This document shows positions 5,612 to 40,634 of a DNA stretch of 64,000 bases, in pieces (within the stretch, counting starts at the first letter, position 1; each line of letters starts with the position of its first letter). The stretch is taken from the NCBI GenBank assembly GCA_964392095.1, contig CAYMOF010000001.1, forward strand, positions 12,401 through 76,400, read 5' to 3'. Below the pieces are notes generated by a model, which was not told where the DNA came from, searched no databases, and saw only the letters and a list, made by a program, of their open reading frames with translations. The position numbers and the translations under genes were made by a program. Origin of the DNA: an uncultured Candidatus Saccharibacteria bacterium. Lineage in GTDB: Bacteria > Patescibacteriota > Andersenbacteria > UBA10190.

Positions 5612-7066
5612 ATGCAATCTCGCGTTTCTGGAGCCGTGTCTCTCACTTTTGCCCAAGCCGTCCTTCTAATTTTGGGATGGGTTACTCACCCTTTAATAGG
5701 ACGTCTTCTAGGCACGGCCGCTTACGGCATATATGGGGTTGTTCTGTCTGTCCAAAGCATCATCGGCCTTTTTCTTACTCTGGGCGTGCCAATCGCTATA
5801 TCCAGATATGTCGCCCAAGATCCCCAGCACGCCAAAAACACGCTCCAACAGGGACTAAAAATTCAAATATCCCTGGCCTTTCTAATCTCAATCATTACCT
5901 TTTTTATTAGCCCTATTATGGCCCAGGCCCTCGGAGACCCCTCTCTCACTCCTTATTTTAGATTTATTTCTCTTGTCGTTTTCGTACAATCCGGTTATCC
6001 CGTCTTTGTTCAATATTTCAGCGGACTTCACCTTTTTAACAAACAAGCTCTTTTAACTGTAATTTATGCCATCATTAAATTAGGCGCGGCCATTTCTCTG
6101 ATCTTTGTTTTTAACATATATGGAGCCTTCAGCGGATTCGCCATCGGGGGACTGATTGCCGCTTTTTTGGGTTACTTATGGTCCAAAAATCTCGGCGGCC
6201 GATTAACCAAACGCTTGCCGTTAAACTCTTTCCTTTCTTTTGCCAGCTCTTACGTTTTTATTCTTTTTGGCCTTCAGCTTCTCATCAGCCTGGATCTATT
6301 TATGGTCAAAGCCCTTCTTAAAGACAATGTATCCGTCGGCTATTACAACGCTTCTGTCACACTGTCACGCATCCCTTACCTGCTCCTCCAGGGACTTTCC
6401 TTCGTACTATTACCCAGTGTTTCCTCGCTAACAAAACCCGGGGCTTCCCACACCAAGGCCGTTAGGTTTATAAGCAACACCCTACGCTATCTTATTGCCA
6501 TAATCGTGCCGGGAGCAATGCTGGCGGCCACCACCAGCAAAAACCTCATCATACTTTTTTTCAGCACAGATTACCTGCCCGCGGCCAGCAGCCTGACTAT
6601 CCTTATGATCGGTCTCAGTACTCTGGCTTTTTTTCTGTTGTTAGCCAATATTATTGCCGGCGCCGGCCGTCCTTTAATTGCCTTGTTTACAACATTACTC
6701 ACCTTGGTCATTAGCGGTCTCTTGGGTTACATCCTCATTCCGTCTTTTGGCATATACGGAGCCGCGTGGCAAACAACCATCGCCAGTCTTATCGGCTTGC
6801 TTATTCTTTCCATCTATACCTTCAAATCATTTAATATCCCCCTTCCTTTAAAGAGCGCCTTTAACATCACTATCGCTTCTGGACTGGCTGTAATCCCCAC
6901 CTACATATGGTCTGTCCCTCCGCTTCTCTTACCTGCTCAATACCTGGTTCTTTTTTCCTTATACGCGCTTGCCTTGCTCTTCCTCGGAGAAATAAAGAAA
7001 TCAGATATTGACCTCATAGCAAACTCTCATCCGCTTTTTAATAAATTATTATCACGCCTTAAATAA
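5612..7066 (+). CDS. Wzx-like polysaccharide flippase (MOP superfamily, polysaccharide biosynthesis protein family)
   Basis: 484 aa, about 12-14 TM. The N-terminal pattern VSLTFAQAVLLILGWVTHPLIGRLLGTAAYGIYGVV is typical of Wzx/PST family proteins. Confidence 0.7.
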   Translation: MQSRVSGAVSLTFAQAVLLILGWVTHPLIGRLLGTAAYGIYGVVLSVQSIIGLFLTLGVPIAISRYVAQDPQHAKNTLQQGLKIQISLAFLISIITFFISPIMAQALGDPSLTPYFRFISLVVFVQSGYPVFVQYFSGLHLFNKQALLTVIYAIIKLGAAISLIFVFNIYGAFSGFAIGGLIAAFLGYLWSKNLGGRLTKRLPLNSFLSFASSYVFILFGLQLLISLDLFMVKALLKDNVSVGYYNASVTLSRIPYLLLQGLSFVLLPSVSSLTKPGASHTKAVRFISNTLRYLIAIIVPGAMLAATTSKNLIILFFSTDYLPAASSLTILMIGLSTLAFFLLLANIIAGAGRPLIALFTTLLTLVISGLLGYILIPSFGIYGAAWQTTIASLIGLLILSIYTFKSFNIPLPLKSAFNITIASGLAVIPTYIWSVPPLLLPAQYLVLFSLYALALLFLGEIKKSDIDLIANSHPLFNKLLSRLK

Positions 7067-9182: not shown

Positions 9183-10763
9183 ATGTCCGAATCTTCCCTA
9201 AAAAAAGAACAGATCCAAACTTCAAAATTTGCCGGCCTCATCGGCTTAACCGCGCTGGGAGGCGCCTTGCTTGGATTTTTCTTACAATTAGCCGTCGCTT
9301 ACTTTTTTGGTGCCTCATATAAAACGGACGCGTTTTTTATGGCCATGTCTACTTCAGAGCTTCTTTCCAAACTACTGCTGGGAGGCTCAATCACGGCCGT
9401 TTTCCTTCCTGTTTTCGTAAACAAAATATCCCGCCAACGGGATAAAGAAGCCTGGTCCCTAGCTCTAAACCTAATCCACCTTACCATCATTGTAATGTCT
9501 TTCGTTCTTGTTCTCCTGGGCGTTTTCACCCGCCCCTTTGTCAACTTTATTGCTCCCGGTTTCGACGAGCAAACCACCTCCTTAACAACAAACATGCTAC
9601 GCCTTTTACTTCCCTCATTTTTGTTCCTTTTTCTAATAGAGCTCGGTACATCCATGATGCACTCCCTTCGCAGATTCACTATACCGGCCTTCCTGCGAAT
9701 AATAGCCCCCTCTACATCCTTAATAATCCTGCTTACTTTCTACAAAATCATCGGTATTTATGCTCTGGCCGTCGGCGCTTTAACCAGCTCTGTATTACAA
9801 CTAGTCCTTCTTTATTATGGTTTGCGCAAAAACGGTCTAGCTTACCGCTTTGTATTTAATCCTCTCCACCGCGATATTAAACACATTTTTTATTTAGTTT
9901 ATCCATTTGCAATTTCCGTCCTAGTTACACAAATGGCGGGTATTGTCTATCGAATCCTCGCTTCTGAACTATCCGAAGGAAGCCTTGCTTCACTCAAATT
10001 CGCCGAGAAAATCACCCAAATGATAACCATTATCTTCTTAACATCCATTACTATGGTTATCTATCCCAACCTATCCCGAAAAGCGTCGTACAAAGATTAT
10101 AACGGGATGCGCGACACCATTGCTTACGCTATCAGGTTAATCATTCTTCTAATCTTGCCCATCACTATCGGTGTTATCATGCTTCGCCTTCCCCTGGTCT
10201 CTTTTATTTACCAACGAGGGTCTTTCACGGCTGAAGACGCTTACTTAACCAGCACTGCTCTCCTGTTTTTGGTTATTGGCCTAACCACTAACGGCATAAG
10301 CTCTGTTCTCGGCCACGCTACCCTCGCTCTTCAAAAAACGAGAGTGGCCGTGGCCGTAAGTTGCGCTTCCCAAGCAATAGCTATATTCCTATTTATAATT
10401 CTTACCCCAAAAATGTCCCTCGCCGGACTCGCTTTAGCTTCTTCTCTTGTCCCAATAGCCACCGCCATTCTTTATGCGCTTCACCTTAAAAATCACATCA
10501 GCAATCTACTCTCCGTATTCACCGGTTCTTTCTACAGCAAAACTTTATTTCTGGCAATTGTTCTCGTAATTGCGCTTCACTTTTCTTTGCTTTTCTGTAA
10601 TTTCCCCCAATTTCCCCCGCAAACAGCTCTATTCCTAAAAATTCTAATACCGTCCATTATCGGAACTTTTGTTTTCTTTGGAGGAGCATACATACTACAC
10701 ATATCAGAAATTAGAGATCTAACGACCATCCTCGGTCGCAAATTATTAAAATATCTTACTTAA
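9183..10763 (+). CDS. MurJ/MviN-family lipid-linked oligosaccharide flippase
   Basis: N-terminal LQLAVAYFFGASYKTDAFFMAMS...LLLGGSITAVFLPVF matches the conserved MurJ signature (YFGAS..DAF). 526 aa, about 14 TM. Confidence 0.7.
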   Translation: MSESSLKKEQIQTSKFAGLIGLTALGGALLGFFLQLAVAYFFGASYKTDAFFMAMSTSELLSKLLLGGSITAVFLPVFVNKISRQRDKEAWSLALNLIHLTIIVMSFVLVLLGVFTRPFVNFIAPGFDEQTTSLTTNMLRLLLPSFLFLFLIELGTSMMHSLRRFTIPAFLRIIAPSTSLIILLTFYKIIGIYALAVGALTSSVLQLVLLYYGLRKNGLAYRFVFNPLHRDIKHIFYLVYPFAISVLVTQMAGIVYRILASELSEGSLASLKFAEKITQMITIIFLTSITMVIYPNLSRKASYKDYNGMRDTIAYAIRLIILLILPITIGVIMLRLPLVSFIYQRGSFTAEDAYLTSTALLFLVIGLTTNGISSVLGHATLALQKTRVAVAVSCASQAIAIFLFIILTPKMSLAGLALASSLVPIATAILYALHLKNHISNLLSVFTGSFYSKTLFLAIVLVIALHFSLLFCNFPQFPPQTALFLKILIPSIIGTFVFFGGAYILHISEIRDLTTILGRKLLKYLT

Positions 10764-13186: not shown

Positions 13187-13915
13187 ATGGACCAATCAAA
13201 GCCTAATAACCATTCAACCTGGATCATTATCCCCACCTACAACGAGAAGGGAAATATTTCTAAAATGATCCACCGTCTCTTTTGGTTAAATATTCCTAAT
13301 CTATCCGTTCTCATAGTGGACGACAGTTCTCCCGACGGCACCGGCTCAATCGTTCGGTCTCTGCAAAAAAAATATCAATCTCTTCACCTTGAACAAAGAT
13401 CAGGCAAAAATGGTTTAGGAACAGCCTACATCCACGGCTTTAAGTACGCCTTAGAAAAAGGAGCATCGGCACTAGTCCAAATGGACGCCGATTTTTCTCA
13501 CAGCCCCGACGACGTGTCTCGTCTTCTAAACGAACTAAAAAAATATGATCTCGTTCTGGGATCCAGATACGTCAACGGCATCAGCGTGATTAACTGGCCG
13601 CTCAAAAGGCTGCTTATAAGCATGGGCGGAAACCTTTATGCCCGCCTGGTCACCGGCCTGCCTTATAAAGATTCGACTGGCGGATTTAAGGCCTGGCGCT
13701 CACCGGCACTTAAAAAAATTAATTTGGACCAAACTAAAGGTAATGGATATGCTTTTCAAATTTCTACCACCTACGCCGCCTGGAAAAAGGGTTTTAAAAT
13801 TACTGAAGTTCCTATAGTTTTCACTGAAAGAACCGACGGGAAATCAAAGATGAGCAAGGCAATAGTATGGGAGGCTATTTGGCTTGTCTGGAAACTGCGC
13901 ATATTCGGCATATAA
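13187..13915 (+). CDS. GT2 dolichyl/undecaprenyl-phosphate hexose synthase (DPM1-like)
   Basis: WIIIPTYNEKGNI, LIVDDSSPDGTG, MDADFSHSPDD, LVLGSRY are a classic Dpm1/Ppm1 motif set. Confidence 0.85.
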   Translation: MDQSKPNNHSTWIIIPTYNEKGNISKMIHRLFWLNIPNLSVLIVDDSSPDGTGSIVRSLQKKYQSLHLEQRSGKNGLGTAYIHGFKYALEKGASALVQMDADFSHSPDDVSRLLNELKKYDLVLGSRYVNGISVINWPLKRLLISMGGNLYARLVTGLPYKDSTGGFKAWRSPALKKINLDQTKGNGYAFQISTTYAAWKKGFKITEVPIVFTERTDGKSKMSKAIVWEAIWLVWKLRIFGI

Positions 13916-16193
13916 AAATCCAATGCGTATAAATTTATATTTATTTCTCGTCATAGTTTGCATTCTTCTCGCCTTCTCCCCCTTGTTAAGGGGGTATTTT
14001 TTCTATAGCGGAGACATGCGCGACGTTTTTATCCCTCTTGAAAAGTTTTTCCGATCTCAACAACTGGTTGGCCAAATCCCCTCCTGGAACCCAAACATCG
14101 CCTGGGGTTTTCCGGTAATTGCCTCTGCCCAAATAGGCTATTTCTATCCACCTCTTTTACTCGGACGTTTTTTGCCTCTTCAAATATATCTCCCTCTAAT
14201 ATTCATGTCTCATTTAATATTTCTGACCATTGGTACCTATTTTTTTGTCCGCCGCCTAGGACAAAGCAAAACCTCCAGCTCTCTGTCAGCTCTTTCTTTT
14301 GCTTTAGGTGCTTACGTAATCCAACACGCCTCCCACCTAAACATAATCCTCACTTTATCCTGGCTGCCCTGGCAACTCTTGATCGCGCATACTCTCGCCT
14401 CCCGAAAAAAATTTAATTTTTTGAGGTTTACTCTTTTTGTCCTGACATTAAGTTTCCCCTTCCTAGCGGGACAAATCCAGATTCCTCTGCTAACAAGCGG
14501 TTTTTCCTCTCTTTTTTATTTATGGCTATCCTTAATCAACAAGAAAACATTCTTTAAGCCCACCCTTTACGTTTTGTCCGCCGCTGTCTTAGTCGTCGCC
14601 CTGGCTTCATGTCAGCTCTTGCCTACCTACGAACTGACGCAATTTTCATCCCGGGCCAACAACAATGATTTTGATATCATCCGAGCCAACCAACACAGCT
14701 TTCCCCTCTACCATTTGCCCACCCTGCTATTTCCACGCTTCTTTGGCAACGACTCAACCTATTGGGGAAAGCGTTTGCAAATAGAGTATGGAATTTATAT
14801 AGGCGCTATTCCTCTAATTCTCTCTTTATGGATTATCTTTAAACAAATCAAGTCAAATAAACCTGTTTTACCTTACGGACGATTCTGGTTATTCGCCGCG
14901 ATTGCCTCTTTTTTGCTCGCCTTGGGAAACAATTCCCCTTTTAGACTTATCGGACTTGAGCCTTCTCTTTGGATATTTTCGGCTCCCGCTCGTTGGCTAT
15001 TATTTACTTGTTTCTCTCTGTCAATCATGTCCGGGTTCGGTTTGGATATACTGTCTAATAAAAACATATCCTTAAGGTCTTTCCAGTGGTTTATCGTTAT
15101 ATTCTTTGCTTTCATTATCGGATTCAATCTTTTATTATTGCTGCCTGCCACTACCCTAGCCGATTACGCACTTGATCTAATAAAAGCAATCCGGCCGGAA
15201 ATTTTGACCGGTCGAGACCTTACCTATTACCAAAACAAACTTCTTAATCTGGTTGTCAGCGCCAAACAAGATAGCATCAGCTTATCCTCTCTCTACACCA
15301 TTATTCCTCTTGTCTCTATCTTGTCCTTTCCTTTCATATTTAACAGAAAAAGAGGACGTCAGGTTATTCTTGGTGTAACTATTTTTGAATTGATAATCTT
15401 TGCCAACAGCACCAACCCCACCACCCCCTGGACAAAAATATTAAATCCCCCCTCCTCCTTAAAACAATTACCTAATCACGTACTGGATAAATCATCAAGG
15501 CTCCACTCGCTGCGCCCTTCCGGAGGAGACACCGGAGCTCTCTTAACTAACCCTTCTTCGCGAGCCGACAAAGAAACCAGAAACGAGCTAAGAAAGCTTT
15601 TGGTACCCCTAGTCCATTCCCAATTCGATGTAGCCGGTATAGAATGGCCCGCTTCTCTTTTTCTTTCTTCTCATGTGCCCCTTTTAGACCAGCTTCGAAC
15701 CTTCAACAAAAGCAGCTACAACCTTGACTTGGCTCGCTCTTTAAATATCGGAGCCGTAACCGCCCCTGCCAGCATGCCTTTGTCCAATATCAACCCTGTC
15801 TCAAAAAGCCAAGATGTTCTAATATACGATTTAGGCGAAAACCCCCGAGCCATTCTCTGTTCCTCTGAAAATAAGTGTGGTGTCAGCGCTTCCTACTCCG
15901 AATTAAACCCCAAGAAAATCAGTATCAATACCGACTCCCCCCAAGACACGACTTTGTTAGTCAAAGACAACTGGTTTCCCGGCTGGTTGGCCACCATAGA
16001 CGGTCTGCCCGCAACCATAGAAAAATCTAATTCCATATTTAAATCAATAAAACTTCCTCCCGGCCAACACACGGTTACTATGGAATATCGCCCCCGCTCC
16101 TTAGAAACCGGTCTCTTTATATCCCTGACAACTATTACAATACTAATAACCATCAATCTCCTGTTATTGCAAACAAAATCAAAACATCCGTAA
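13884..16193 (+). CDS. YfhO-family membrane glycosyltransferase-like protein (GT-C type)
   Basis: 769 aa. The N-terminal region FYSGDMRDVFIPLEKFF...NIAWGFPVIASAQIGYFYPPLLL follows the YfhO pattern, with a multi-TM body and C-terminal domain. The likely true start is the ATG at 13923. Located immediately downstream of a DPM1-like GT2, which is the classic pairing. Confidence 0.55.
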   Translation: MSGNCAYSAYKNPMRINLYLFLVIVCILLAFSPLLRGYFFYSGDMRDVFIPLEKFFRSQQLVGQIPSWNPNIAWGFPVIASAQIGYFYPPLLLGRFLPLQIYLPLIFMSHLIFLTIGTYFFVRRLGQSKTSSSLSALSFALGAYVIQHASHLNIILTLSWLPWQLLIAHTLASRKKFNFLRFTLFVLTLSFPFLAGQIQIPLLTSGFSSLFYLWLSLINKKTFFKPTLYVLSAAVLVVALASCQLLPTYELTQFSSRANNNDFDIIRANQHSFPLYHLPTLLFPRFFGNDSTYWGKRLQIEYGIYIGAIPLILSLWIIFKQIKSNKPVLPYGRFWLFAAIASFLLALGNNSPFRLIGLEPSLWIFSAPARWLLFTCFSLSIMSGFGLDILSNKNISLRSFQWFIVIFFAFIIGFNLLLLLPATTLADYALDLIKAIRPEILTGRDLTYYQNKLLNLVVSAKQDSISLSSLYTIIPLVSILSFPFIFNRKRGRQVILGVTIFELIIFANSTNPTTPWTKILNPPSSLKQLPNHVLDKSSRLHSLRPSGGDTGALLTNPSSRADKETRNELRKLLVPLVHSQFDVAGIEWPASLFLSSHVPLLDQLRTFNKSSYNLDLARSLNIGAVTAPASMPLSNINPVSKSQDVLIYDLGENPRAILCSSENKCGVSASYSELNPKKISINTDSPQDTTLLVKDNWFPGWLATIDGLPATIEKSNSIFKSIKLPPGQHTVTMEYRPRSLETGLFISLTTITILITINLLLLQTKSKHP

Positions 16194-16236: not shown

Positions 16237-17430
16237 ATGCATATACTTTTTTCTATACCAAGTGGATTTCACTTACGAGAAATTCTTCTTCCTTTAAAGC
16301 CTCTCATCGATCAAGACACCTCAATTGAGAAAGTCACCTGCCTGTGCCCGGCAGCGCCGTTTAAAGACAAACTTTTTAAAGAATATAAAGAAAAATATCA
16401 CTTCATTAAAAACCCCACCGATGAAAAAGAAACCACAAAATTGTTAGACCAAATTAAGCCCCAGCTTGTAGTTACCAACACAAGCGGGCTTGATTCTCTC
16501 GATCTGCCCCCCTTAAAATCAGCCCAATCTTTAAAAATCCCCACTTTTACTTTCATCTCCAGCTGGGATAATGTCTGGAAAATGGAAAGGCTAAAAAATG
16601 ACAACGGCTGTCAAATCCTCGCCGATACTATTGTTGTATGGAACCCCACCATGAAAAACCTCCTCCTCAAAATTTTTCCAACAGACCCCGAAAAAATTAA
16701 AATTATCGGCGCTCCCCGCTTAGACTTCTTTCACCATCCGGAAAAAATACCAACCCGCGAACAACTTTTTTCTCACCTCGGCCTAGACGACCCGGAGCGT
16801 AAATTAATACACCTTTCCTCAACCGAACTGTATCCTTTCGACTATGTCGTCAAAACCATAAGCAAAGCAATCGATAGCGATAAAATCAACCACCATCCCT
16901 ACTTATACCTTTCCGTACATCCCGGCGGCGACATAAACCGCCACAAAAAATATACCCAAAAATACAATGTCTTAACTCGCTATTCCTTTGGCAGGTTACC
17001 GACCTCTCCTCACCCCAACTTCCTCTATAATCCCACCATTAAGGACGTATATCTACTAACGTCTCTATTCGTTCACAGTGACCTTCTAATTAATCACTCC
17101 TCAACCACTGCCATCGAATCATTTTTGGGCCACACACCGGTCATAAACATAAATTACGGACGCCCATTTGACTACTTTAATTGGCGCCGCTCAATGGTTT
17201 ACCGTGACTTTAAACAGCACTATCAACAAATCCTGAAAGCCAAAGCGACCAAAATAGTCAAAAACCCCTCTGAACTAATAAACGCGATAAAAGCCTACCT
17301 AAACAATCCGCATGCCGACGCCGACGGTCGCCAAACCGCCTTAAAAAATATCTTGGCATCGGCCGATAAGCCCTGTGCTCCTCAAATACTGTCTCTCATA
17401 AAAACCTCTGTTGGCAGGGGTGATAGGTAG
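16237..17430 (+). CDS. TagF/TagB-like CDP-alditol (glycerol/ribitol) phosphotransferase family protein
   Basis: LYLSVHPGGD and LFVHSDLLINHSSTTAIESFLGHTPVINI correspond to the Glyphos_transf motifs k.HP and aDvLITDYSS..fDF..l.kPvI. Confidence 0.5.
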   Translation: MHILFSIPSGFHLREILLPLKPLIDQDTSIEKVTCLCPAAPFKDKLFKEYKEKYHFIKNPTDEKETTKLLDQIKPQLVVTNTSGLDSLDLPPLKSAQSLKIPTFTFISSWDNVWKMERLKNDNGCQILADTIVVWNPTMKNLLLKIFPTDPEKIKIIGAPRLDFFHHPEKIPTREQLFSHLGLDDPERKLIHLSSTELYPFDYVVKTISKAIDSDKINHHPYLYLSVHPGGDINRHKKYTQKYNVLTRYSFGRLPTSPHPNFLYNPTIKDVYLLTSLFVHSDLLINHSSTTAIESFLGHTPVININYGRPFDYFNWRRSMVYRDFKQHYQQILKAKATKIVKNPSELINAIKAYLNNPHADADGRQTALKNILASADKPCAPQILSLIKTSVGRGDR

Positions 17431-17434
17431 GATA

Positions 17435-17463
17435 TTGACTTGGTTTTGCAAACAACTATTTTA
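17435..17463 (+). promoter_or_regulatory. Candidate sigma70-type promoter (TTGACT-N17-TATTTT) upstream of the ATP-grasp operon
   Basis: TTGACT at 17435-17440 and TATTTT at 17458-17463 with a 17-nt spacer. Lies in the 77-nt gap before the 17508 start. Confidence 0.25.
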
Positions 17464-17507
17464 AAACCATTGACAACTTTCCTTTCTATTACTTATCTTA
17501 CTTAACT

Positions 17508-18350
17508 ATGAAATTTCATTTCATCTGCCACCCCCAGCACAACCAAAAAACCCGAGACCGGCTAAAAGAAGCTTGCGCTAAAAGAAATCTGGACTTTGTT
17601 TCTCAACACTGGATAGCCAAAGAACAGCCCAAACCCCAACCTAAAGACTTACTTTATCGCGCCTCTATTAGCCCTAAAAATATCATTCTTGAACAACAGC
17701 TAATTAATGAATCGATTATCACTTTATACCAAAAAACCCTTTCCTCCTATGTCGATCAATTCTCCAGCCAGCCTTCTCTTTTAACCAAAGCTAACATACC
17801 CACACCAAAAACCCTTAACATCTATTCCTGTGACCGCTCCACCCTTATTGAACAAGTGAATCAACTAGGCGGCTTTCCTGTTATCTTAAAAGTGTTCGGC
17901 GGCAGTCATGGGATAGGCATTATTAAATCGGACTCAACATCCTCTCTTTTTTCAATCACCGACTATCTCCTCTCCAAAAGAGAACTAGTTATCATGCAAG
18001 AATTCATAAAAACAAACTCCTCGGCTCGCTTAGTCGTTCTTGGCAATCAGGTTATTTCCAGCTATAGCTACCAAGTTCCCGCCCACGATTTTCGATCAAA
18101 CACCGGCCCCAACCCCCAAACTAACGCTGTCAACTACTCACCAGACATACAAAAAATCGCCGTGGGAGCTGTAAAGGCCCAGCTGGTTGAGTTCGGCGGA
18201 GTGGATATACTTATTGACGACAATAACCAACCTTACGTTTCGGAAGTTAACTTTCCTTGCAACATCATTCGCGCCGAAGAAGCAACCGACATAGATGTAG
18301 CCGGCTATATTTTGGATTTTCTAATTAACAAAGCAACCCGTTATGACTAG
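17508..18350 (+). CDS. ATP-grasp ligase (RimK / cyanophycin-synthetase N-domain-like)
   Basis: ILKVFGGSHGIGIIK, ELVIMQEFIK and GGVDILIDDNNQPYVSEVNFPC match ATP-grasp B- and C-domain signatures. Confidence 0.7.
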   Translation: MKFHFICHPQHNQKTRDRLKEACAKRNLDFVSQHWIAKEQPKPQPKDLLYRASISPKNIILEQQLINESIITLYQKTLSSYVDQFSSQPSLLTKANIPTPKTLNIYSCDRSTLIEQVNQLGGFPVILKVFGGSHGIGIIKSDSTSSLFSITDYLLSKRELVIMQEFIKTNSSARLVVLGNQVISSYSYQVPAHDFRSNTGPNPQTNAVNYSPDIQKIAVGAVKAQLVEFGGVDILIDDNNQPYVSEVNFPCNIIRAEEATDIDVAGYILDFLINKATRYD

Positions 18351-18996
18351 GGGGACCTTGACTTTTATTTTTGATGACGGGTATCAATGTATTTGGAACC
18401 ACGTCTTACCCGCCTTAAACGATCTCAAAATCCCGGCCGTATTTTCTGTACCAATAAAATCAACCTCCAAAGAACATCAATCCCACTTTCCTCTAATTCC
18501 ATATACAAGGTGGCTAACCGTTAAAAAGCACGGACATGAAATTGCTGCCCACTCAATAAGCCACACGGATTTAAGTGTCCTTTCTACCCAGGAATTAAAA
18601 AATAATTTAGCCCTACCCGCCTCTTTATTAAAAGCCACTACCTTGGTTTACCCCGGCGGCGCTTATAATAAAAAAATTAAAGCCCTGGCTCGCCAACACT
18701 ACACCGCCGCCCGTTCCACCAATCACGGGCTTGAAACCAAAACGCCTGCGGATTCTTTTGCTCTACACACAATAAATTTCACTCAGAAAAACTTCAGCCT
18801 ATTAAAAGCCAACTATTATGCTTTAAAAGCCTTCTTGCTCAACCGTTGGCTCATTGAGACATATCACATAATTACCCCAGAAAAAACCAATCACCCTTAT
18901 GCTATCCCCTTGTCCACTTTTGTTTCTCACCTTAAATTTGTTAGCCACCTTCCTCTTCACTTTACCACCATAAAAGACTATAAAGGCATCCGTTAA
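18343..18996 (+). CDS. Polysaccharide deacetylase (NodB / CE4 family)
   Basis: TFIFDDGY (motif 1 TFDDG), HGHEIAAHSISH (motif 2 H-x4-H), LVYPGGAYN (motif 3). 8-nt overlap with the ATP-grasp gene. Confidence 0.75.
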   Translation: MTRGTLTFIFDDGYQCIWNHVLPALNDLKIPAVFSVPIKSTSKEHQSHFPLIPYTRWLTVKKHGHEIAAHSISHTDLSVLSTQELKNNLALPASLLKATTLVYPGGAYNKKIKALARQHYTAARSTNHGLETKTPADSFALHTINFTQKNFSLLKANYYALKAFLLNRWLIETYHIITPEKTNHPYAIPLSTFVSHLKFVSHLPLHFTTIKDYKGIR

Positions 18997-19005
18997 ATAA
19001 ATTCC

Positions 19006-20289
19006 ATGTTTCGCTCCACAGACAAAAGCCTACATCCCAAAATAATCTCCGTTACCGGCACCAAAGGCAAGACTACCATTGTCCGTCTGCTGGACCATGT
19101 TCTCGCCCGACAATTTAACAACATTCTAAGGGTAGATACAGACGGCCACTATTTAAACGGAACCCAAAAATCAAACCCTCTGGACAGCTATCAACTTTTT
19201 GGCTTGTTACCAGGATCTTCTCCCGGCAGATTTTTATGGGACCTGCGCGATAAAAAAAATTCCCTGGCCATCCTTGAAGCAACATTCTCCTGTTCAGGGC
19301 ATGCCGGTCTTGGCTATCTTTCACATGACATTGGAATTTTCACCAATGTTTATGGCGACCACTTGGGACGCGACATAAAAAATGCCAAACAAATGGCGCG
19401 ACACAAAGCCAGGTTTATTTTTTCTCGCATAAAACCATCCGGCTTTGCCGTTTTTAATGCCGACGATAAACGCGTCTGTCGTTATCTGAACATGATACCA
19501 CCCTCTCTTAACATTAAGAAAATTCCTGTCGGCATTGATTTTAAGTATTTTTCTCCCAACCAACTCAAGCATCCCCATGAATTCGCCATAACTTGTAAAG
19601 AAAACAACGTAGGCCTGCTAAATAAACACAAGTTTAATCCTTTGTTCGACGCCTCCACTATTCCGTGGACTTTTAATGGTTGTTTTCTGCCCTCCATCTC
19701 TAATCTTATGTTTGTAACCGGTGCCCTAGGCGCTCATTACAACAAGCAAATACCTGCCGAGATTATTAATCGAATTTGCTCATACCAACCCAAAGAAGCT
19801 GGCGGACGATTAATAAGTATAAAAAACGAAGCCCGCAACATCACCGTCCTCCTCGACTTCGCCCACGAAGAAAAATCGCTTCTTGAAATTGCCAAACTCG
19901 CCCGCCAGCTATCTACCAACTCGACTATCAGCGTAATTCGAATAAACCCTGATCGCACCGACGCCTTGATTAAAAAAACCGGCCGCCGGATAGCCAACGC
20001 CTTTGACACTATAATCGTTTACGACAAAATCGATGGCATACACAGAAACGAATTAAAAGTTCCTCGCTGGAAACTTACTCGCCAACCAGGCGCCACTGCT
20101 TCACTGCTGCACTCCGCCATCAAAAAACATCAAAAACCACCTCACCAAACCTTCAAAATTATTGAAGAAAGAAAGGCCGTCGCAAAAGCTATCAGCATTG
20201 CTCAACCGGGAGACGTAATTATTTATATTGTCAACGATAATCATGGAGCCAGCTTAAACATCGCCAAAGAAGCCCTAAATCAATCATGA
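19006..20289 (+). CDS. Mur-ligase-family protein (CphA C-domain / MurT / PgsB-like amide ligase)
   Basis: P-loop ISVTGTKGKTT, GIFTNVYGDHLG (Mur ligase TN..DHLD motif) and a C-terminal Mur-ligase-type domain. Does not look like MurC-F proper. Confidence 0.65.
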   Translation: MFRSTDKSLHPKIISVTGTKGKTTIVRLLDHVLARQFNNILRVDTDGHYLNGTQKSNPLDSYQLFGLLPGSSPGRFLWDLRDKKNSLAILEATFSCSGHAGLGYLSHDIGIFTNVYGDHLGRDIKNAKQMARHKARFIFSRIKPSGFAVFNADDKRVCRYLNMIPPSLNIKKIPVGIDFKYFSPNQLKHPHEFAITCKENNVGLLNKHKFNPLFDASTIPWTFNGCFLPSISNLMFVTGALGAHYNKQIPAEIINRICSYQPKEAGGRLISIKNEARNITVLLDFAHEEKSLLEIAKLARQLSTNSTISVIRINPDRTDALIKKTGRRIANAFDTIIVYDKIDGIHRNELKVPRWKLTRQPGATASLLHSAIKKHQKPPHQTFKIIEERKAVAKAISIAQPGDVIIYIVNDNHGASLNIAKEALNQS

Positions 20290-21077
20290 TCTCCGCCGTA
20301 ATCACCACCAAAAATAACGCGGACACTCTGAAAAAGTGTTTAGCCGGTCTCTCGTTCTGTAAAGAAATTATTGTCATTGATTCAGGCAGTACCGACCAAA
20401 CCCTGAAAATTGCCGCTCATCACTCCGCTCGTATTTATCACAACAATTGGCCCGGCTACGGCGCCCAAAAAAACTTTGGTCTCTCAAAAGCTAACTGCAA
20501 GTGGTTATTATTTATTGATGCTGACGAGGAAGTAACCAATAAACTAGCACGGGAAATTGTGTCTGTTGTAAATTCACCCCAATATGATTTTTACTGGCTA
20601 AAGATTACTACCGTCTTTCTCGGCAAAAAACTGAACCATCTATACGGTCACAACCTCCGCCTCTTTAAAAAAAGCAAAGGCCTTTGGAATAATTCACCCG
20701 TTCATGAACAGGTTATCGACAGCTCCGGCAATACCTTGAAACTAAAAAAATCACCTTCTGGCCTTGTTCAGGAACCACTTTTACACCATTCTCACAATAC
20801 CGTCTGCTCTTATTTAAAAAAAATGCGCCACTACACATCCCTTGACGCCCGGAAAATGCATGAACACAACACCCACCGCTCCGGCAAAAAAATTAGACCT
20901 TCCTTTTTTTTGCCCACTCGTCTTTTTGCCAGACAGCTAATTAAAATGTTATTTTATCGCCGCGGACTATTTGACGGTTTCGCTGGAATTACATGGTGTC
21001 TCCTCTCTGCCTACTACGAATACGAGCTAGGAAAAAAATACCTTACTCTCATACACCACAACAAATTACCACGCTAA
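20286..21077 (+). CDS. GT2 glycosyltransferase (LPS-core/WaaE-like subfamily)
   Basis: ISAVITTKNNADTLKKCL, IIVIDSGSTDQT, LLFIDADEEV (DXD). ATGA overlap with the upstream gene. Confidence 0.75.
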   Translation: MISAVITTKNNADTLKKCLAGLSFCKEIIVIDSGSTDQTLKIAAHHSARIYHNNWPGYGAQKNFGLSKANCKWLLFIDADEEVTNKLAREIVSVVNSPQYDFYWLKITTVFLGKKLNHLYGHNLRLFKKSKGLWNNSPVHEQVIDSSGNTLKLKKSPSGLVQEPLLHHSHNTVCSYLKKMRHYTSLDARKMHEHNTHRSGKKIRPSFFLPTRLFARQLIKMLFYRRGLFDGFAGITWCLLSAYYEYELGKKYLTLIHHNKLPR

Positions 21078-21109: not shown

Positions 21110-22252
21110 ATGCGCATAATTCACACTTGTCTGCGCTACCCCCCTGCTCTGGGAGGAGCCGAAAACTACATTAAGAACATTGTCACCAGAACCCGAGACA
21201 TTGACACCGGCCGCGACGTGCGTGTCCTTTCCAGCAAACTCAAAACCCATTCGCCCATCTCTGTTCTGAATAACAAAGACCTGTCCAAAGATCCTGTTTA
21301 CATCCAAAGACTCCACCACCTAAAAACCCCGTTTATTTCTTACCCTCGACTACAATCTCTGCCTTATTATTTAAAACATCATCAACCTGACATAATCCAC
21401 TCCTACGGTTTTTGGTACCAGCCCGCCGATACCACTGCCCGCTTCGCTTCTAAACACAAACTGCCTTTTATCTTTCATCCTATATATTATGAAAACCGCG
21501 TCAGGAAAAAATTTATTTGGCAAACATACAAAAAAACCATAGGCTACAAAACCTTTGCCGCCGCGTCAGTTGTTGTAGTTATCTCTCCTCAAGAACAAAA
21601 ACTAATCGAAAAAAACAATTTTCCCGTGAAAAAATTCGCCTTGATACCCCCTGGCATAGATATCGCCAGATTCTCAAAAGCTACCCCCAGCTTATACCAA
21701 TCTCGAAAAATAAAAGGAGACATAATTCTCTCTGTCGGTCGTCTGGCTAAATCCAAGGGATTGGAAGACGTAATTGATATACTGCCTAGTCTCATAAAAA
21801 ACCACCCTAACCTTCACTATGTTATTGTCGGCGAAGACTTCGGGCATCAAAATATTCTTCTTAAAAAAACCGAAGGCCTTGGGTTAACCAACCACGTTCA
21901 TTTCTTGGGCAAAATAAATTCCCGAGAACTAATCAGTGCTTACCAGCATGCCAACATCCTAGTTCACCCCTCCTATTATGAAGCCTTTGGAATTGTTTTA
22001 GCTGAAAGCCTGGCGGCCGGCACTCCTGTGATCGCTCGAAATTCCTCCTCTATTCCTTTTGTCTGTCCTCACAACATTGGAGGACAGCTCTTTTCTTCCC
22101 CCAAAGAACTTCTTCATTCTTTAGATACTCTCCTCAAAGAAAAAGACCTGCGAAAAAAATATGGCGCCCAAGGACGCCATTACGTAGCCTCTAATTTCGG
22201 ATGGGATAAGTCAATCAAATCCATTATTGACCTTTACTCCTTTATCAAATAG
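21110..22252 (+). CDS. GT4 glycosyltransferase
   Basis: SYYEAFGIVLAESLAAGTPVIARNSS is the E-x7-E GT4 signature. Confidence 0.8.
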   Translation: MRIIHTCLRYPPALGGAENYIKNIVTRTRDIDTGRDVRVLSSKLKTHSPISVLNNKDLSKDPVYIQRLHHLKTPFISYPRLQSLPYYLKHHQPDIIHSYGFWYQPADTTARFASKHKLPFIFHPIYYENRVRKKFIWQTYKKTIGYKTFAAASVVVVISPQEQKLIEKNNFPVKKFALIPPGIDIARFSKATPSLYQSRKIKGDIILSVGRLAKSKGLEDVIDILPSLIKNHPNLHYVIVGEDFGHQNILLKKTEGLGLTNHVHFLGKINSRELISAYQHANILVHPSYYEAFGIVLAESLAAGTPVIARNSSSIPFVCPHNIGGQLFSSPKELLHSLDTLLKEKDLRKKYGAQGRHYVASNFGWDKSIKSIIDLYSFIK

Positions 22253-22762
22253 TCAAGTAAGCGACAAGCTCTTTTTACCCCCCAGGTTGTCTGCTAATCC
22301 CTCTCCAGACAAGAAAGCGAAGCATTCCTCCATCGGTTGTCCATCCGGATGAATTAGAACATTAGGACGAGCATTAAAATCATCAGCTAATCGCCTAACC
22401 ACCTCTTCAGCCGATGAAGCCAACAACACCACCCTGGGCATAGGCCGACAAGCGAGAAAAACATGCAACAGTCTTTCAACCTGACCGGCAAATCCAGGAT
22501 CAACATCATCAAGCAAAATCCCGTCCATGACCTCGGATAATAATGCTATAGACTCCAAGCATTCGTCCAAGTTAGTAACCTGAGCCCAGCACCTACGCCT
22601 ATTCAGCTCTCTGCACCATTCCGCGATCACGCCACTGTCGTCCGTTTCGGTAACTACCAACACCAGCCTTCGCTCATCCCTTGCCCCGTTCATGATCATC
22701 TCCCTCCCTAATGAAAGTACAAGCAAAGCACAAAAACAAGCCCAGTCTTGTCTTTCTGACAA
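22253..22762 (-). CDS. Hypothetical protein with weak CheY-like receiver-fold pattern (no conserved Lys)
   Basis: Alternating beta/alpha pattern RLVLVVTETDD / GILLDDVDP / RVVLLASS suggests a (pseudo)receiver domain. The true start is probably an internal Met (MIMNGARDE...). Opposite strand to its neighbours. Confidence 0.3.
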   Translation of the reverse strand: MSERQDWACFCALLVLSLGREMIMNGARDERRLVLVVTETDDSGVIAEWCRELNRRRCWAQVTNLDECLESIALLSEVMDGILLDDVDPGFAGQVERLLHVFLACRPMPRVVLLASSAEEVVRRLADDFNARPNVLIHPDGQPMEECFAFLSGEGLADNLGGKKSLSLT

Positions 22763-22802
22763 AATATGCTACATTCCGGATCGTAATCCCCTTCGTCTCA
22801 TC

Positions 22803-23864
22803 ATGTCAAATCAACCCTCTAAACAACCAAGAATTCTTATAGTCTCACTGTCAGGAATAGGCAACTTGGTTATGCAGTCACCCTCAACTGACCTAATAAA
22901 AAAACATTATCCCCAGTCTCTTATAACTGCCTGGTTAGCCCCCCGTTCGACTAAGCAGATCGCTCATTGCCTGCCCGCCATCGACCAAATTATAGAAGCG
23001 CCTATTAAACAGCCTCTTACTAATCACCTTTCCCTTATCAGTCAATTTAGGCGTCTGAATTTTTCTACCGGCATAATCATGTCTCCCGGCCAACTGATAA
23101 AAAGCGCTACTTATCTATTTCTTTGCGGAATACCCACCCGGGTTGGCCACAAATATCCACTGGGCAAAAACCCTCAAAGCGGTTTTCTTTTAACCCACGC
23201 CATTAAGGAAAACCCCAACCTTCATGACATCGAACAAAACCTAAAACTCCTGAAGGCCCTAAACATCCCCCTCCCCCAAGAACCAACAACTTATTCGCTA
23301 AACTTGCCCAACCAAGCCAGTCAAAAAGCGGACAATATTTTCGACAACCTAAATATAACCGCTGGTCAGAAAATAATCGGTTTTCATCCCGGATCATCGC
23401 CTGATCACGTTTGGAAAAGATGGCCCAGCCAGAATTTTATTGCCCTTGGCCAACAGCTCGGCAAAAAATTTAATGCCCACATTCTCATTTTCGGCGGCCC
23501 CCAGGAAGAAAAATTAAAAAATAAGATTGTAAGATCAATTGGTCTTACTCACGCTTCATCAATCTCATCAAGCCTGCTGATTTCCGCCGCGTTAATTAAA
23601 AAATGCGGACTCTTTATTTCTAATGATTCAGGCCTTATGCACCTGGCCGCCGCTCTAAACACACCCACCTTAGGACTGTTTGGTCCAACCAATGAAAAGC
23701 ATACCGGCCCTCGCGGCCATAAAAGCTTCACTATTCGCGCTCCGAAAACATCACCCTCTTATAACACCGAAAAAAACTATCGCCTGGGCTCAAACCCCCA
23801 TCCTGATATCAAGACCCTTAAGGTTAACCACGTACTGGAAAAAATTAATTCGATTAACTTCTAG
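22803..23864 (+). CDS. GT9 family glycosyltransferase (heptosyltransferase-like)
   Basis: ILIVSLSGIGNLVMQSPSTDLIKKHYPQSLITAW and GLFISNDSGLMHLAAALNTPTLGLFGPT are textbook GT9 motifs. Start moved to the ATG at 22803, since the track ORF begins at 22692 inside the convergent gene. Confidence 0.75.
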   Translation: MSNQPSKQPRILIVSLSGIGNLVMQSPSTDLIKKHYPQSLITAWLAPRSTKQIAHCLPAIDQIIEAPIKQPLTNHLSLISQFRRLNFSTGIIMSPGQLIKSATYLFLCGIPTRVGHKYPLGKNPQSGFLLTHAIKENPNLHDIEQNLKLLKALNIPLPQEPTTYSLNLPNQASQKADNIFDNLNITAGQKIIGFHPGSSPDHVWKRWPSQNFIALGQQLGKKFNAHILIFGGPQEEKLKNKIVRSIGLTHASSISSSLLISAALIKKCGLFISNDSGLMHLAAALNTPTLGLFGPTNEKHTGPRGHKSFTIRAPKTSPSYNTEKNYRLGSNPHPDIKTLKVNHVLEKINSINF

Positions 23865-29478: not shown

Positions 29479-31572
29479 TTATTCGCTCATTACCTTCATT
29501 ATCGGATCTCTTATTATCGCTTTTTTTAAGCCCTTTTTAACTATTTTAATATTAGTTACTCCCGGCTTAACTAATAGCTCTATTCTTCTTCTAGAATTAT
29601 TTTTATCAGACAACAACCCGTCAGCGGCTATCGTGACATCACTCTCTACCTTTGTCCATTCCAGCACAAGTTTTTTGTTCCTATTATTCGCATTATAAAC
29701 CGTTAGCCCCACCTCGCCAGGTAGCTCGGCGAACACACAGTCTTTATCGGGATCATACCCAACATTCTTCCAACCCGAATCTCTGCTTATAAAGACACCG
29801 TCGCCATTAGTCTTACCCTCGTCTCTGTATAGTATCGCGTCCTCGTACTCTGACTTTGACCATTTCATTTTATTCATCATCAATTCCTCTACTGCCTTGT
29901 TTTGTTTTTCTGATAAAGAATCAGGATGAACAACCATCATCTTTACGTCCAGCCATCGCAAAACATCAGTCAAGGTTTCCACCATCTCCTGTTCAAAAAA
30001 CTCGTTCCTTGCCTCCAATATATGCGTTGTTCTAAGAAATAAAATTTGTCTAAGAACAGGAAAAGATCTTACCTCTTCATAAACCTCTTTTGCTTCAGCT
30101 CTTTCCAAGGCAATATTGCCCACCACATTTTTACCATGACGCAATGACGCGAATAGCGATTTGGAAGCGGCTCTATAATTAGTGACCGCCGGTAGTTCTG
30201 CTATTGCTCTTCCTTCACCGCTTTTTACCTCCTCATATACTCGCGATAATTGAGCCGACTGCGTATTAACGGGAACAAAAACAAATTCAATAGCTATCAA
30301 AATTACCATTATAGCTACGCTGACTTTCCGATTTATGTTATGAAACAAAACCAGACCCAGCATAACCGCCATGCTCATACCCACCACCACACCCGCCCGC
30401 GCCGCCGCCCTTACCACTTCAATGACTGGCCAGCTGTCAATTATTTCATAAGGCAAAACTAAATCAGTTACCACGCCAAAGACATGAAGCCTGGGACCCA
30501 GACTAATTATCAAGAACAACAAGCCTAAGCCTTGCCAAAAAATCCTTTCTTTTTTTGACACACGTTGCTGAAAAAAAACAACCGTTAGTAAAAAAAACAA
30601 ACCCAGGTAATGAGTCGCTTCATATACGTTCCCGGTAAAAACTTTTTCATACACCGGAGAAAACCAATTCCCCCAAACAGAATGCCACACAGAAGGCGTA
30701 ACAAAAGCGAATAAATCAGCTGAAAATCTCACCAGCTGCTCTTTTCCTAAAACCAAATCACTGCCTTCCCGCCAGGCCATCCCAAGAGTCGGAAAATACG
30801 GTAAAATTACGAAAATAAAACACAAAGACAAAGCTAGAACTATCACCTGCCACCCCTTCCTCGAGCCAACCAGCTTTTTCAGAGAACTTCTTTTATACAA
30901 AATAATTAAAAAAACCAACACTGACGCCCACAAAGCGTAATGATGCTCCGTCCATGACTGCGTAATTGCCAACCCGACTAAAATCAACGCCTTGCCAAAC
31001 CCCGGTTTCTCAATTATAGACAACACTGTTAAAACAATTAACGGCAGCCACTGGACTTGCATAGCCCCGAAGTGACCCATGGAGTGGGCCACGTGAAAAG
31101 GCAGAAACATATAATACAAGCCGCTCACAAAAGCCACGGCCTCAAGAAATCTTTGTCCGCCCCCAGCCCCTTCTTTCTGTCTCTTTAAAACATGCCCGAC
31201 CAATAGATACATTCCGTATCCGGCAAGAAAGTAAGACAGTAGCCAAACAAGGTTATAAGCAAACGGTTGTCCAAACAAGGCATGCAGTCCCATCCACGGC
31301 CAAACCGATAAATTAACCAATCTCGGCCCTCCTCCTCCAAAAAATTCATTTTTTTGAAACTCCGTAAAAGACCCCATCCCACCCCAAGTAACATCAAAAC
31401 TATCCACCAAAGTCCTCCACTTGCTCTCGAACCGCCAAGCCGTTTGCCAAGGATCACCCCCCTCACCCGCCAGACAGGAATCCATTTGAACTACCACCGG
31501 CCAAGTCATAGCCACCACGGCCAATATATACAAAACTGCTACCCCCAGATGCTTTTTAAAGCCCATTATCAT
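29479..31572 (-). CDS. Large polytopic membrane protein, YfhO-like / GT-C candidate
   Basis: 697 aa. N-terminal multi-TM region (NLVWLLSYFLAGYGMYLLVGH pattern similar to the YfhO-like ORF at 13884) and a C-terminal soluble domain. Confidence 0.4.
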   Translation of the reverse strand: MIMGFKKHLGVAVLYILAVVAMTWPVVVQMDSCLAGEGGDPWQTAWRFESKWRTLVDSFDVTWGGMGSFTEFQKNEFFGGGGPRLVNLSVWPWMGLHALFGQPFAYNLVWLLSYFLAGYGMYLLVGHVLKRQKEGAGGGQRFLEAVAFVSGLYYMFLPFHVAHSMGHFGAMQVQWLPLIVLTVLSIIEKPGFGKALILVGLAITQSWTEHHYALWASVLVFLIILYKRSSLKKLVGSRKGWQVIVLALSLCFIFVILPYFPTLGMAWREGSDLVLGKEQLVRFSADLFAFVTPSVWHSVWGNWFSPVYEKVFTGNVYEATHYLGLFFLLTVVFFQQRVSKKERIFWQGLGLLFLIISLGPRLHVFGVVTDLVLPYEIIDSWPVIEVVRAAARAGVVVGMSMAVMLGLVLFHNINRKVSVAIMVILIAIEFVFVPVNTQSAQLSRVYEEVKSGEGRAIAELPAVTNYRAASKSLFASLRHGKNVVGNIALERAEAKEVYEEVRSFPVLRQILFLRTTHILEARNEFFEQEMVETLTDVLRWLDVKMMVVHPDSLSEKQNKAVEELMMNKMKWSKSEYEDAILYRDEGKTNGDGVFISRDSGWKNVGYDPDKDCVFAELPGEVGLTVYNANNRNKKLVLEWTKVESDVTIAADGLLSDKNNSRRRIELLVKPGVTNIKIVKKGLKKAIIRDPIMKVMSE

Positions 31573-40334: not shown

Positions 40335-40634
40335 GTGCAGATCATCAAAGAAAAATCCATCGTCGCTAACACAAGGTTGTCCAGAAACTCTCTTTTTGTA
40401 ACTACCAAAAATTTCAAGGGTTTTAAAACCGGTATAAACAAAGAAGAAGAATACAGTTGGTTTTACATTGTCTGTCTAAAAGGAGAAGAAGGAGAAAGCA
40501 TCACCCTTAACATCAATAATCCAAATAAGAAGAACGAGCCGCTGTCTCTAAAAAATGGACTAGCCCACTACTCCTTAGATGGTTGGCAATGGCATAAAAT
40601 CAACTCCGTCCCACTAACCAGTTATGGTTTCTAA
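40335..40634 (+). CDS. Small hypothetical protein. Possibly the detached N-terminal beta-sandwich domain of the downstream M14-like peptidase.
   Basis: 99 aa with GTG start. Overlaps the next ORF by 11 nt in a different frame. The composition suggests a beta-rich domain. Confidence 0.25.
   Translation: MQIIKEKSIVANTRLSRNSLFVTTKNFKGFKTGINKEEEYSWFYIVCLKGEEGESITLNINNPNKKNEPLSLKNGLAHYSLDGWQWHKINSVPLTSYGF

Follow-up and report, generated by a model that had tools for sequence, protein, structure and literature searches.

Cyanophycin synthetase 1 (CphA1) carries two amide-forming active sites on one polypeptide. Its ATP-grasp (G) domain places aspartate on the C terminus of the growing chain, and its Mur-fold (M) domain phosphorylates the carboxylate on the side chain of the new aspartate and then adds arginine. 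Double mutation of D585 and H586 in SuCphA1 abolishes M-domain activity, and roles have been assigned to the catalytic residues (PMC9262961, PMC9427784). In phylogenies, the G domain of CphA nests among RimK-like ATP-grasp enzymes (PMC11915815). RimK makes poly-alpha-L-glutamate and glutamylates RpsF, and the retropepsin-like protease RimB trims these tails; RloABC, a system of an ATP-grasp enzyme, a 7TM-transglutaminase and a retropepsin, has been linked to envelope stress (PMC11957051). Here we examine a 64,000-nucleotide stretch of DNA (the window) from an uncultured Candidatus Saccharibacteria bacterium of the Andersenbacteria lineage, in which a glycan operon carries consecutive genes for a RimK-like ATP-grasp ligase, a CE4 (NodB-fold) deacetylase and a Mur-ligase-like protein, referred to below as the M-type ligase. 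An initial annotation had treated the three genes as a single module that decorates an amino sugar. The reading that we favour, at a little under even odds (about 45%), is that the locus interleaves two units that are each conserved on their own, a deacetylase intrinsic to the operon and an accessory pair of ligases found across the Candidate Phyla Radiation (CPR), and that the pair builds an amide-linked amino-acid chain.

The M-type ligase is a member of a distinct family of stand-alone proteins, to which, among characterised relatives, the M domain of CphA stands nearest. With the NCBIfam CphA model TIGR02068 the ligase scores 176.9 bits (E 5.4e-52), under the curated cutoff of 850 bits for the whole protein, and the match spans model positions 476-853, the M domain only. 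The best MurE model reaches 73.7 bits (cutoff, 373), the FolC model (TIGR01499) matches the P-loop alone at 20.8 bits against a cutoff of 162.65, and the MurT, PgsB and CapB models of NCBIfam give no match at E <= 0.01. Pfam identifies Mur_ligase_M and Mur_ligase_C only; the DUF1727 domain, the CphA N domain (PF18921) and a fused G domain are all absent from the protein. Identities as FolC, MurT, PgsB or MurC-F were rejected on these scores and on the architecture. The initial annotation had named CphA, MurT, PgsB and FolC as candidate classes, and of the profile hidden Markov models it is that of CphA, in its M region, that scores highest. A sequence search of the PDB returned five CphA1 entries (best E value, 1.1e-16) followed by a marginal MurE match. 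An AlphaFold2 model built from 32 homologues (mean pLDDT, 92.2) gave six CphA1 structures as the top Foldseek matches in the PDB (E 2e-26 to 9e-22; TMq, 0.75-0.78), with MurE next at 1.5e-19.

The catalytic apparatus of the CphA M domain is retained. Both motifs picked out in the initial annotation were confirmed: residues 18-24 read GTKGKTT and residues 118-121 read DHLG. They align with GTNGKTT and NVAADHLG of CphA, the second as part of NVYGDHLG. Residues D118-H119 correspond in the alignment to D585-H586, the catalytic pair of SuCphA1, and the P-loop lysine and the D-H pair are invariant across the 32-member alignment. Because the sequence begins at the P-loop (residue 17), the protein lacks the N-terminal UDP-sugar-binding domain of MurC-F. 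The C-domain motif that faces KEDDD of CphA reads YDK(I/V)DG in the family, and this suggests that the incoming substrate may be a different one. The likeness to CphA1 (PDB 7LG5, 7WAE) therefore covers the Mcore and Mlid fold, the P-loop, the catalytic D-H pair and the Mur motifs N-x-DD and D-x-AH. It also covers the pairing with an ATP-grasp enzyme of the RimK/GshB/CphA-G clade, so that the logic of chain plus branch with two active sites is available to the pair. The differences are that the two sites reside on two polypeptides without an N domain, that the ATP-grasp enzyme is of RimK rather than G type, and that the partner genes encode polyglutamate proteases and not cyanophycinase. The central ATPase and C-terminal domains are common to this protein and MurC-F, with MurE as the second-best fold match, but a UDP-MurNAc-binding domain is missing and the scores are far under the MurE cutoffs.

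An exhaustive profile search with this family against 1.84 billion representatives (50% identity) gave 406 matches at E <= 1e-30. Approximately the first 100 are stand-alone proteins of about 400-450 residues scoring 214-570 bits, whereas full-length CphA (865-931 residues) enters the same list at 198 bits or below. An exact-sequence look-up did not return the M-type protein of the window, although it is 100% identical to one cluster representative, P0001. The family occurs almost only in CPR/Patescibacteria, with named members from Andersen-, Moranii-, Magasanik-, Saccharimonad- and Pacebacteria, and the nearest proteins to the window genes likewise come from Candidatus Andersenbacteria and other CPR/Patescibacteria. 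Annotation pipelines label family members as 'Mur ligase family protein', 'UDP-N-acetylmuramyl tripeptide synthase' or 'cyanophycin synthetase'. Some unusual forms were also seen. P0433 (972 residues) has two units of Mur_ligase_M plus Mur_ligase_C and is apparently a fused tandem, and two M-type genes lie as tandem duplicates at L007:7989-10525 with no ATP-grasp gene nearby. In P0443, P0450 and P0451 (599-645 residues), PF18921 is joined directly to Mur_ligase_M and Mur_ligase_C and the ATP-grasp G domain is missing; this arrangement of N plus M is unlike that of CphA1 or CphA2.

The ATP-grasp ligase is a divergent relative of RimK. It scores 94.2 bits with Pfam RimK (cutoff, 21) and 106 bits with NCBIfam rimK_fam (TIGR00768), where the cutoff is 143.4, compared with just 23 bits with the CphA model. 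Its best sequence match in the PDB, E. coli RimK (5zct; 1.9e-19), aligns with it at the catalytic positions DFRSN and E-x-N. The substrate loop reads DFRSNTGPNP and so departs from the DFRSN-x-H-x-GG pattern of RimK. Its closest neighbours among the loci that we collected (L085, L001 and L094) similarly have no H-x-GG loop, and the Saccharibacteria-type ATP-grasp partners of M-type ligases retain it (NTHQGG). The likeness to a split CphA put forward in the initial annotation is well supported by the M-type protein, which is closest to the CphA M domain, and is qualified by the RimK type of the ATP-grasp enzyme and the absence of the N domain.

Neighbourhoods of the M-type family were surveyed in metagenome contigs. 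A scan of genome contigs with a generic P-loop had yielded mostly MurE-type genes, with L007 and L008 as the only true family members, and it was replaced by a scan of metagenome contigs with a hand-designed family motif, [FY]Dxxx[VI]YDK[IV]DG, by which 62 of 66 loci were true members. Dereplication at 90% identity left 63 M-type genes, and the counts were restricted to the 26 that have 2.5 kb or more of sequence on either side. An ATP-grasp gene lies within 2.5 kb of the M-type gene in 22 of these 26 loci, in 21 of them on the same strand and within 700 nt. A RimB-like (polyglutamate protease) domain is encoded beside the M-type gene in 15 loci and an Rlo-like 7TM-transglutaminase in 6, while a CE4 gene is found in 2, the window and L001, an independent genome of the Andersenbacteria lineage. 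The ATP-grasp and M-type ligases are therefore a CPR-wide pair and an optional accessory in this operon. The initial annotation had made its module depend on conservation of the three genes together in relatives; the trio is not generally kept, and the usual partner of the pair is a RimB-like protease. We found no paper describing a pairing of RimK with a Mur-fold ligase in CPR.

Eight diverse M-type homologues were also placed in Pfam-annotated contexts (L001, L003, L005, L082-L085 and L155). In two of them (L003 and L082) the M-type gene lies next to PBP1A in a group with 7TM_transglut, ATPgrasp_ST and between one and three RimK-like genes; at L005 the M-type gene is accompanied by a RimB-like gene and RimK, L083 and L084 each have one ATP-grasp gene, L085 has the M-type gene amid five, and L155 has none. 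These contexts resemble the Rim system in that, across CPR, the M-type ligase mostly adjoins a RimB-like gene together with a genuine RimK that has the DFRSN-x-H-x-GG loop. They differ from it in that the window ATP-grasp enzyme belongs to a divergent subfamily, the window has no RimB-like gene, and the described Rim systems are without a Mur-fold ligase (PMC11957051). The likeness to RloABC of Pseudomonas aeruginosa rests on the six loci with 7TM_transglut, ATPgrasp_ST, RimK-like and M-type genes adjoining PBP1A; in one Pfam-annotated locus of the 7TM_transglut kind, ATPgrasp_ST and a RimB-like domain are on a single protein. Rlo, however, lacks a Mur-fold ligase, and the window has no Rlo-type genes. 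The membrane partners PgsC and PgsA were absent from the neighbourhoods examined. At L085:2820-9192, the one M-type gene is packed among the five ATP-grasp genes, which represent at least three subtypes, and a LytR-CpsA-Psr gene follows; the array looks like a stepwise multi-ligase assembly line for peptides. In Saccharibacteria-type loci (L005, L091, L103, L120 and similar), the trio of M-type, RimB-like and RimK genes is usually directly downstream of dnaJ, and downstream of the trio are two or three membrane or small proteins of about 160 residues, each recurring in 6-8 loci.

The deacetylase is an operon-intrinsic gene that occurs independently of the ligases. It scores 52.9 bits with PF01522 (cutoff, 23.1). 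Its D11-D12, H70, H74 and H175, which occupy the Asp-Asp, His-x3-His and distal His positions, are invariant over 34 homologues, and its predicted structure (pLDDT, 95.1) matches the CE4 enzymes PplD, PdaC and PgdA. As the sequence opens straight at the first strand with no N-terminal extension, we treat the enzyme as presumably cytoplasmic. More than 120 homologues at 38-50% identity were found, mainly in Andersenbacteria, and three of them on long contigs (L152, L153 and L154) served for a test of the neighbourhood. In all three of these orthologous loci, the CE4 gene stands in an array of BFO_1060-like transferase, CE4, GT2, GT4 and GT9 genes with neither ligase present; the BFO_1060-like gene abuts CE4 directly upstream and the GT2 gene follows directly downstream. 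A single origin of the ligase-bearing operons found no support, in that neither pairwise identity nor a neighbour-joining tree sets their CE4 enzymes apart from those of ligase-less operons: the L001 enzyme is 55% identical to that of L154 and 46% identical to that of the window. The ligases may thus have been gained or repeatedly lost. A predicted cytoplasmic CE4 enzyme with intact catalytic residues between two amide ligases recalls the NodB-NodA and MshB/BshB-ligase pathways, but the association of deacetylase and ligases is not conserved. MshB and BshB, moreover, are LmbE-family enzymes and not CE4, and their ligases are of neither ATP-grasp nor Mur type.

The operon features are listed in Table 1. 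The gene identities in the initial annotation (RimK-like ATP-grasp, CE4, Mur-ligase family, GT2 and GT4) are borne out by significant Pfam matches. Its junctions needed one correction: the ATP-grasp and CE4 genes do share an 8-nt overlap (ATGACTAG, 18343-18350) and the M-type gene does run into GT2 through an ATGA overlap (20286-20289), but the spacer between the CE4 and M-type genes is 9 nt (18997-19005) and not 10. A 32-nt gap follows ahead of GT4. In L001 the gene order is identical, with junctions of 2 nt and 4 nt, and the array is therefore not a chance arrangement of open reading frames (ORFs). A GT2 gene at the position of the first backbone gene is also found in L001, L153 and L154. 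The product of the gene upstream of the ATP-grasp gene scores 74 bits with BFO_1060_trans, under the cutoff of 200, and matches TIGR04396 at 7.7e-13 and Pfam Glyphos_transf at 2.9e-6. The two promoter-like hexamer pairs upstream of 17508 sit in the only sizeable intergenic gap of the array (77 nt). Such sites show no excess in the region (23 counted against 20.7 expected from shuffling), and the scan for promoters and terminators gave nothing informative besides these two weak sites.

Table 1. Features of the operon and its promoter-like sites (positions in the window)
Feature	Position	Strand	Size (aa)	Supporting match or synteny
GT2 glycosyltransferase, first backbone gene of Andersenbacteria-type glycan operon	13187..13915	+		Pfam Glycos_transf_2 1.2e-27
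YfhO-like multi-pass membrane protein, backbone	13884..16193	+	769	Pfam YfhO 7.2e-11; upstream in L001, L152, L154
BFO_1060/TIGR04396-like surface-carbohydrate transferase, backbone	16237..17430	+	397	NCBIfam BFO_1060_trans 9.1e-21
Two promoter-like hexamer pairs, TTGACT-16-TATTTT and TTGACA-18-TATCTT	17435..17499	+		Sequence scan; weak evidence
Divergent RimK-like ATP-grasp amide ligase	17508..18350	+	280	Pfam RimK PF08443 9.7e-27
CE4 (NodB-fold) deacetylase	18343..18996	+	217	Pfam Polysacc_deac_1 PF01522 4.6e-14
Stand-alone CphA-M-domain-like Mur-fold ligase	19006..20289	+	427	Pfam Mur_ligase_M 3e-16, Mur_ligase_C 1.6e-8
GT2 glycosyltransferase, backbone	20286..21077	+	263	Pfam Glycos_transf_2 3.6e-21; synteny L001, L152-L154
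GT4 glycosyltransferase, backbone	21110..22252	+	380	Pfam Glycos_transf_1 2e-35; synteny L001, L152-L154
GT9 (heptosyltransferase-family), backbone	22692..23864	+		Pfam Glyco_transf_9 6.1e-34; synteny L001, L152-L154

In the interleaved arrangement that we favour, the CE4 enzyme would act with or without the ligases, de-N-acetylating (or de-O-acetylating) a sugar intermediate of the envelope-glycan pathway. On the model of RimK and the CphA G domain, the ATP-grasp ligase would extend a chain at its terminal carboxylate through an acyl-phosphate, and the M-type ligase, by analogy with the CphA M domain, would activate a second carboxylate, probably of a side chain, and add an amino acid or amine there. 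What the data establish are the domain assignments, the retained catalytic residues, the conservation of the ligase pair and the independence of CE4 from the ligases; the substrates, the acceptor and which enzyme makes the chain and which the branch are what we infer. The pair would yield either a short peptide or a branched polyamide, probably acidic. Since the pair mostly travels with RimB-like proteases or with Rlo-like 7TM-transglutaminase genes, the evidence points to a glutamate-rich product, on the C terminus of a protein or as a free or exported peptide, and this company, together with the CphA precedent, makes a mechanism of chain plus side chain the best supported. Here the pair brackets the CE4 gene of the operon and would be co-translated with it, and its product may reach the same glycan, which is the least supported step.

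Several observations weigh against this interpretation. Neither the stand-alone M-type family nor the ATP-grasp subfamily has a characterised member, and the substrates are accordingly inferred only. The window ATP-grasp enzyme lacks the H-x-GG loop of RimK and falls under the rimK_fam cutoff, so glutamate is not assured as its substrate. There is no ATP-grasp gene nearby in 5 of 27 well-flanked loci (both L007 genes, L008, L116 and L155), and RimB-like and 7TM-transglutaminase genes are absent from the whole 64-kb window and from L001. The two ligase genes flank the CE4 gene instead of adjoining each other, with tight junctions on both sides, and L001 retains this ligase-CE4-ligase layout despite an identity of just 51% between the two M-type proteins. 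Conservation of an interleaved layout at such divergence argues for some functional tie of the ligases to the deacetylase and the glycan.

Such a tie is central to the alternative closest to the initial annotation, in which the CE4 enzyme frees the amine of an N-acetylglucosamine-type residue and the ATP-grasp ligase, the M-type ligase or both attach an amino acid or short peptide there or to a sugar carboxylate, so that an envelope glycan would come to bear peptide by a route other than MurC-F. In favour, the three genes show translational coupling within a glycan island of roughly 50 kb, the order RimK-like, CE4, M-type and GT2 persists in the deeply diverged L001, and two further loci with ligase and CE4 genes may exist, as suggested by equal longest-contig values (11,398 and 30,591 bp) in the M-type and CE4 match lists. 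Some family loci also adjoin envelope genes (PBP1A in six and LytR-CpsA-Psr in L085), and ATP-grasp enzymes, such as PurD, can acylate a sugar-type amine. On the other side, in 3 of 3 loci examined the CE4 gene stands at this place in the operon although both ligases are missing, and the CE4 product can therefore do without them. The pair occurs without CE4 or glycosyltransferase genes in 24 of 26 well-flanked loci; both counts tell against the trio as a single module acylating the exposed amine. In addition, both ligase families normally activate the carboxylate of the acceptor, with the free amino acid supplying the amine, we know of no Mur-fold enzyme that uses a sugar amine, and the M-type protein, with its P-loop from residue 17, has no N-terminal domain for binding a nucleotide sugar. 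We consider this alternative doubtful, if still worth serious attention. A more specific version is unlikely: that the two ligases amount to cyanophycin synthetase in split form, built on RimK, and that their branched polyamide is amide-linked to the CE4-deacetylated amino sugar of the envelope glycan in Andersenbacteria. Its product would have an acidic, alpha-linked backbone with isopeptide-linked side residues, again as a peptide-glycan conjugate made outside the MurC-F pathway.

The Mur-ligase fold, the class A PBP adjoining in six loci and the MurJ-like flippases in the window would fit a modification of peptidoglycan precursors, in which stem-peptide residues are added or branched in the manner of MurT/GatD amidation or of the enterococcal D-aspartate ATP-grasp ligase. 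We think this decidedly unlikely: there is no MurT match (E <= 0.01) or DUF1727, no GatD-like gene in the Pfam-annotated family contexts and no UDP-binding N-terminal domain, and the main partners of the family, RimB and RimK, act on glutamate tails of proteins or peptides. A true split cyanophycin synthetase, with aspartate polymerised by the ATP-grasp enzyme and arginine added by the M-type ligase as a nitrogen store, would agree with the relationship of the M-type protein to the M domain of CphA1 and with pipeline labels of 'cyanophycin synthetase'. One recent preprint on Saccharimonadia, which accepts the cyanophycin label as it stands, reports such annotations in 5 of 21 metagenome-assembled genomes; it detected no cyanophycinase. 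The ATP-grasp score with the CphA model (23 bits, against 106 with rimK_fam), the missing N domain, the RimB-like protease in place of cyanophycinase as the usual partner and the YDK(I/V)DG motif in place of KEDDD, which may reflect a different incoming substrate, make a true cyanophycin system very improbable. Least credible is polyglutamylation of a salvaged cofactor (FolC, CofE/CofF or MptN-like), with gamma-linked glutamates added by the M-type and alpha-linked ones by the RimK-like enzyme. The RimK-family enzymes CofF and MptN do cap cofactors, their models give weak matches, and FolC has the same Mur fold and a similar length, but the FolC model (20.8 bits against a cutoff of 163) finds the P-loop alone and no cofactor genes recur in the neighbourhoods.

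The operon lies within a glycan-biosynthesis island (window positions 1354-51556) of more than 20 GT2, GT4 and GT9 genes. The island also has three Wzx/MurJ-type flippase genes (5612-7066, 9183-10763 and 47208-48731), a DegT aminotransferase gene on the minus strand (45811-47046), an FkbM methyltransferase gene (41676-42638), a PMT_2-like gene (43667-45082), genes for YfhO- and DUF6541-like membrane proteins, and large ORFs with no or weak family matches (3272-5596, 29479-31572 and 33907-36255). An ORF of 312 codons at 40624-41562 has a partial match to Peptidase_M14 (zinc carboxypeptidase; E 2e-9), a family that includes deglutamylating carboxypeptidases. The product could be a hydrolase counterpart of the ligase pair, in the place of the RimB-like protease. 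The window has an extreme strand bias in composition: GC skew is -0.32 on the plus strand, uniformly over the 64 kb. Third-codon-position skew is -0.51 in plus-strand genes and +0.45 (sense) in minus-strand genes; being opposite in the two sets, it shows that the bias tracks the DNA strand and not transcription. The bias visibly alters amino-acid usage in the products of plus- and minus-strand genes: 4.5 versus 9.7% for Val, 4.7 versus 8.2% for Gly, 2.8 versus 6.8% for Glu and 5.6 versus 3.1% for Pro. A TTG-start ORF of 169 codons on the minus strand (22253-22762), in the 440-nt gap between GT4 and GT9, overlaps the predicted GT9 start by about 70 nt at its 5' end; it is G-rich on the antisense strand and is probably not a gene but a consequence of the strand skew.

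In summary, we have identified a large family of stand-alone ligases of the CphA M type, of roughly 100 clusters at 50% identity. Little is known of the envelopes and post-translational chemistry of CPR/Patescibacteria, minimal episymbionts that are for the most part uncultivated. The label 'cyanophycin synthetase', which pipelines attach to the family and which metabolic reconstructions of Saccharimonadia have taken up, probably misleads. Ligase-bearing and ligase-less forms of the same operon offer a clean natural comparison for glycan analysis. If a peptide is indeed placed on the CE4-deacetylated sugar, then CPR would make a peptide-glycan conjugate outside the MurC-F pathway. More generally, the habitual pairing of these ligases with RimK-like ATP-grasp enzymes and polyglutamate proteases points to a system in CPR for making amino-acid polymers or modifying protein tails.

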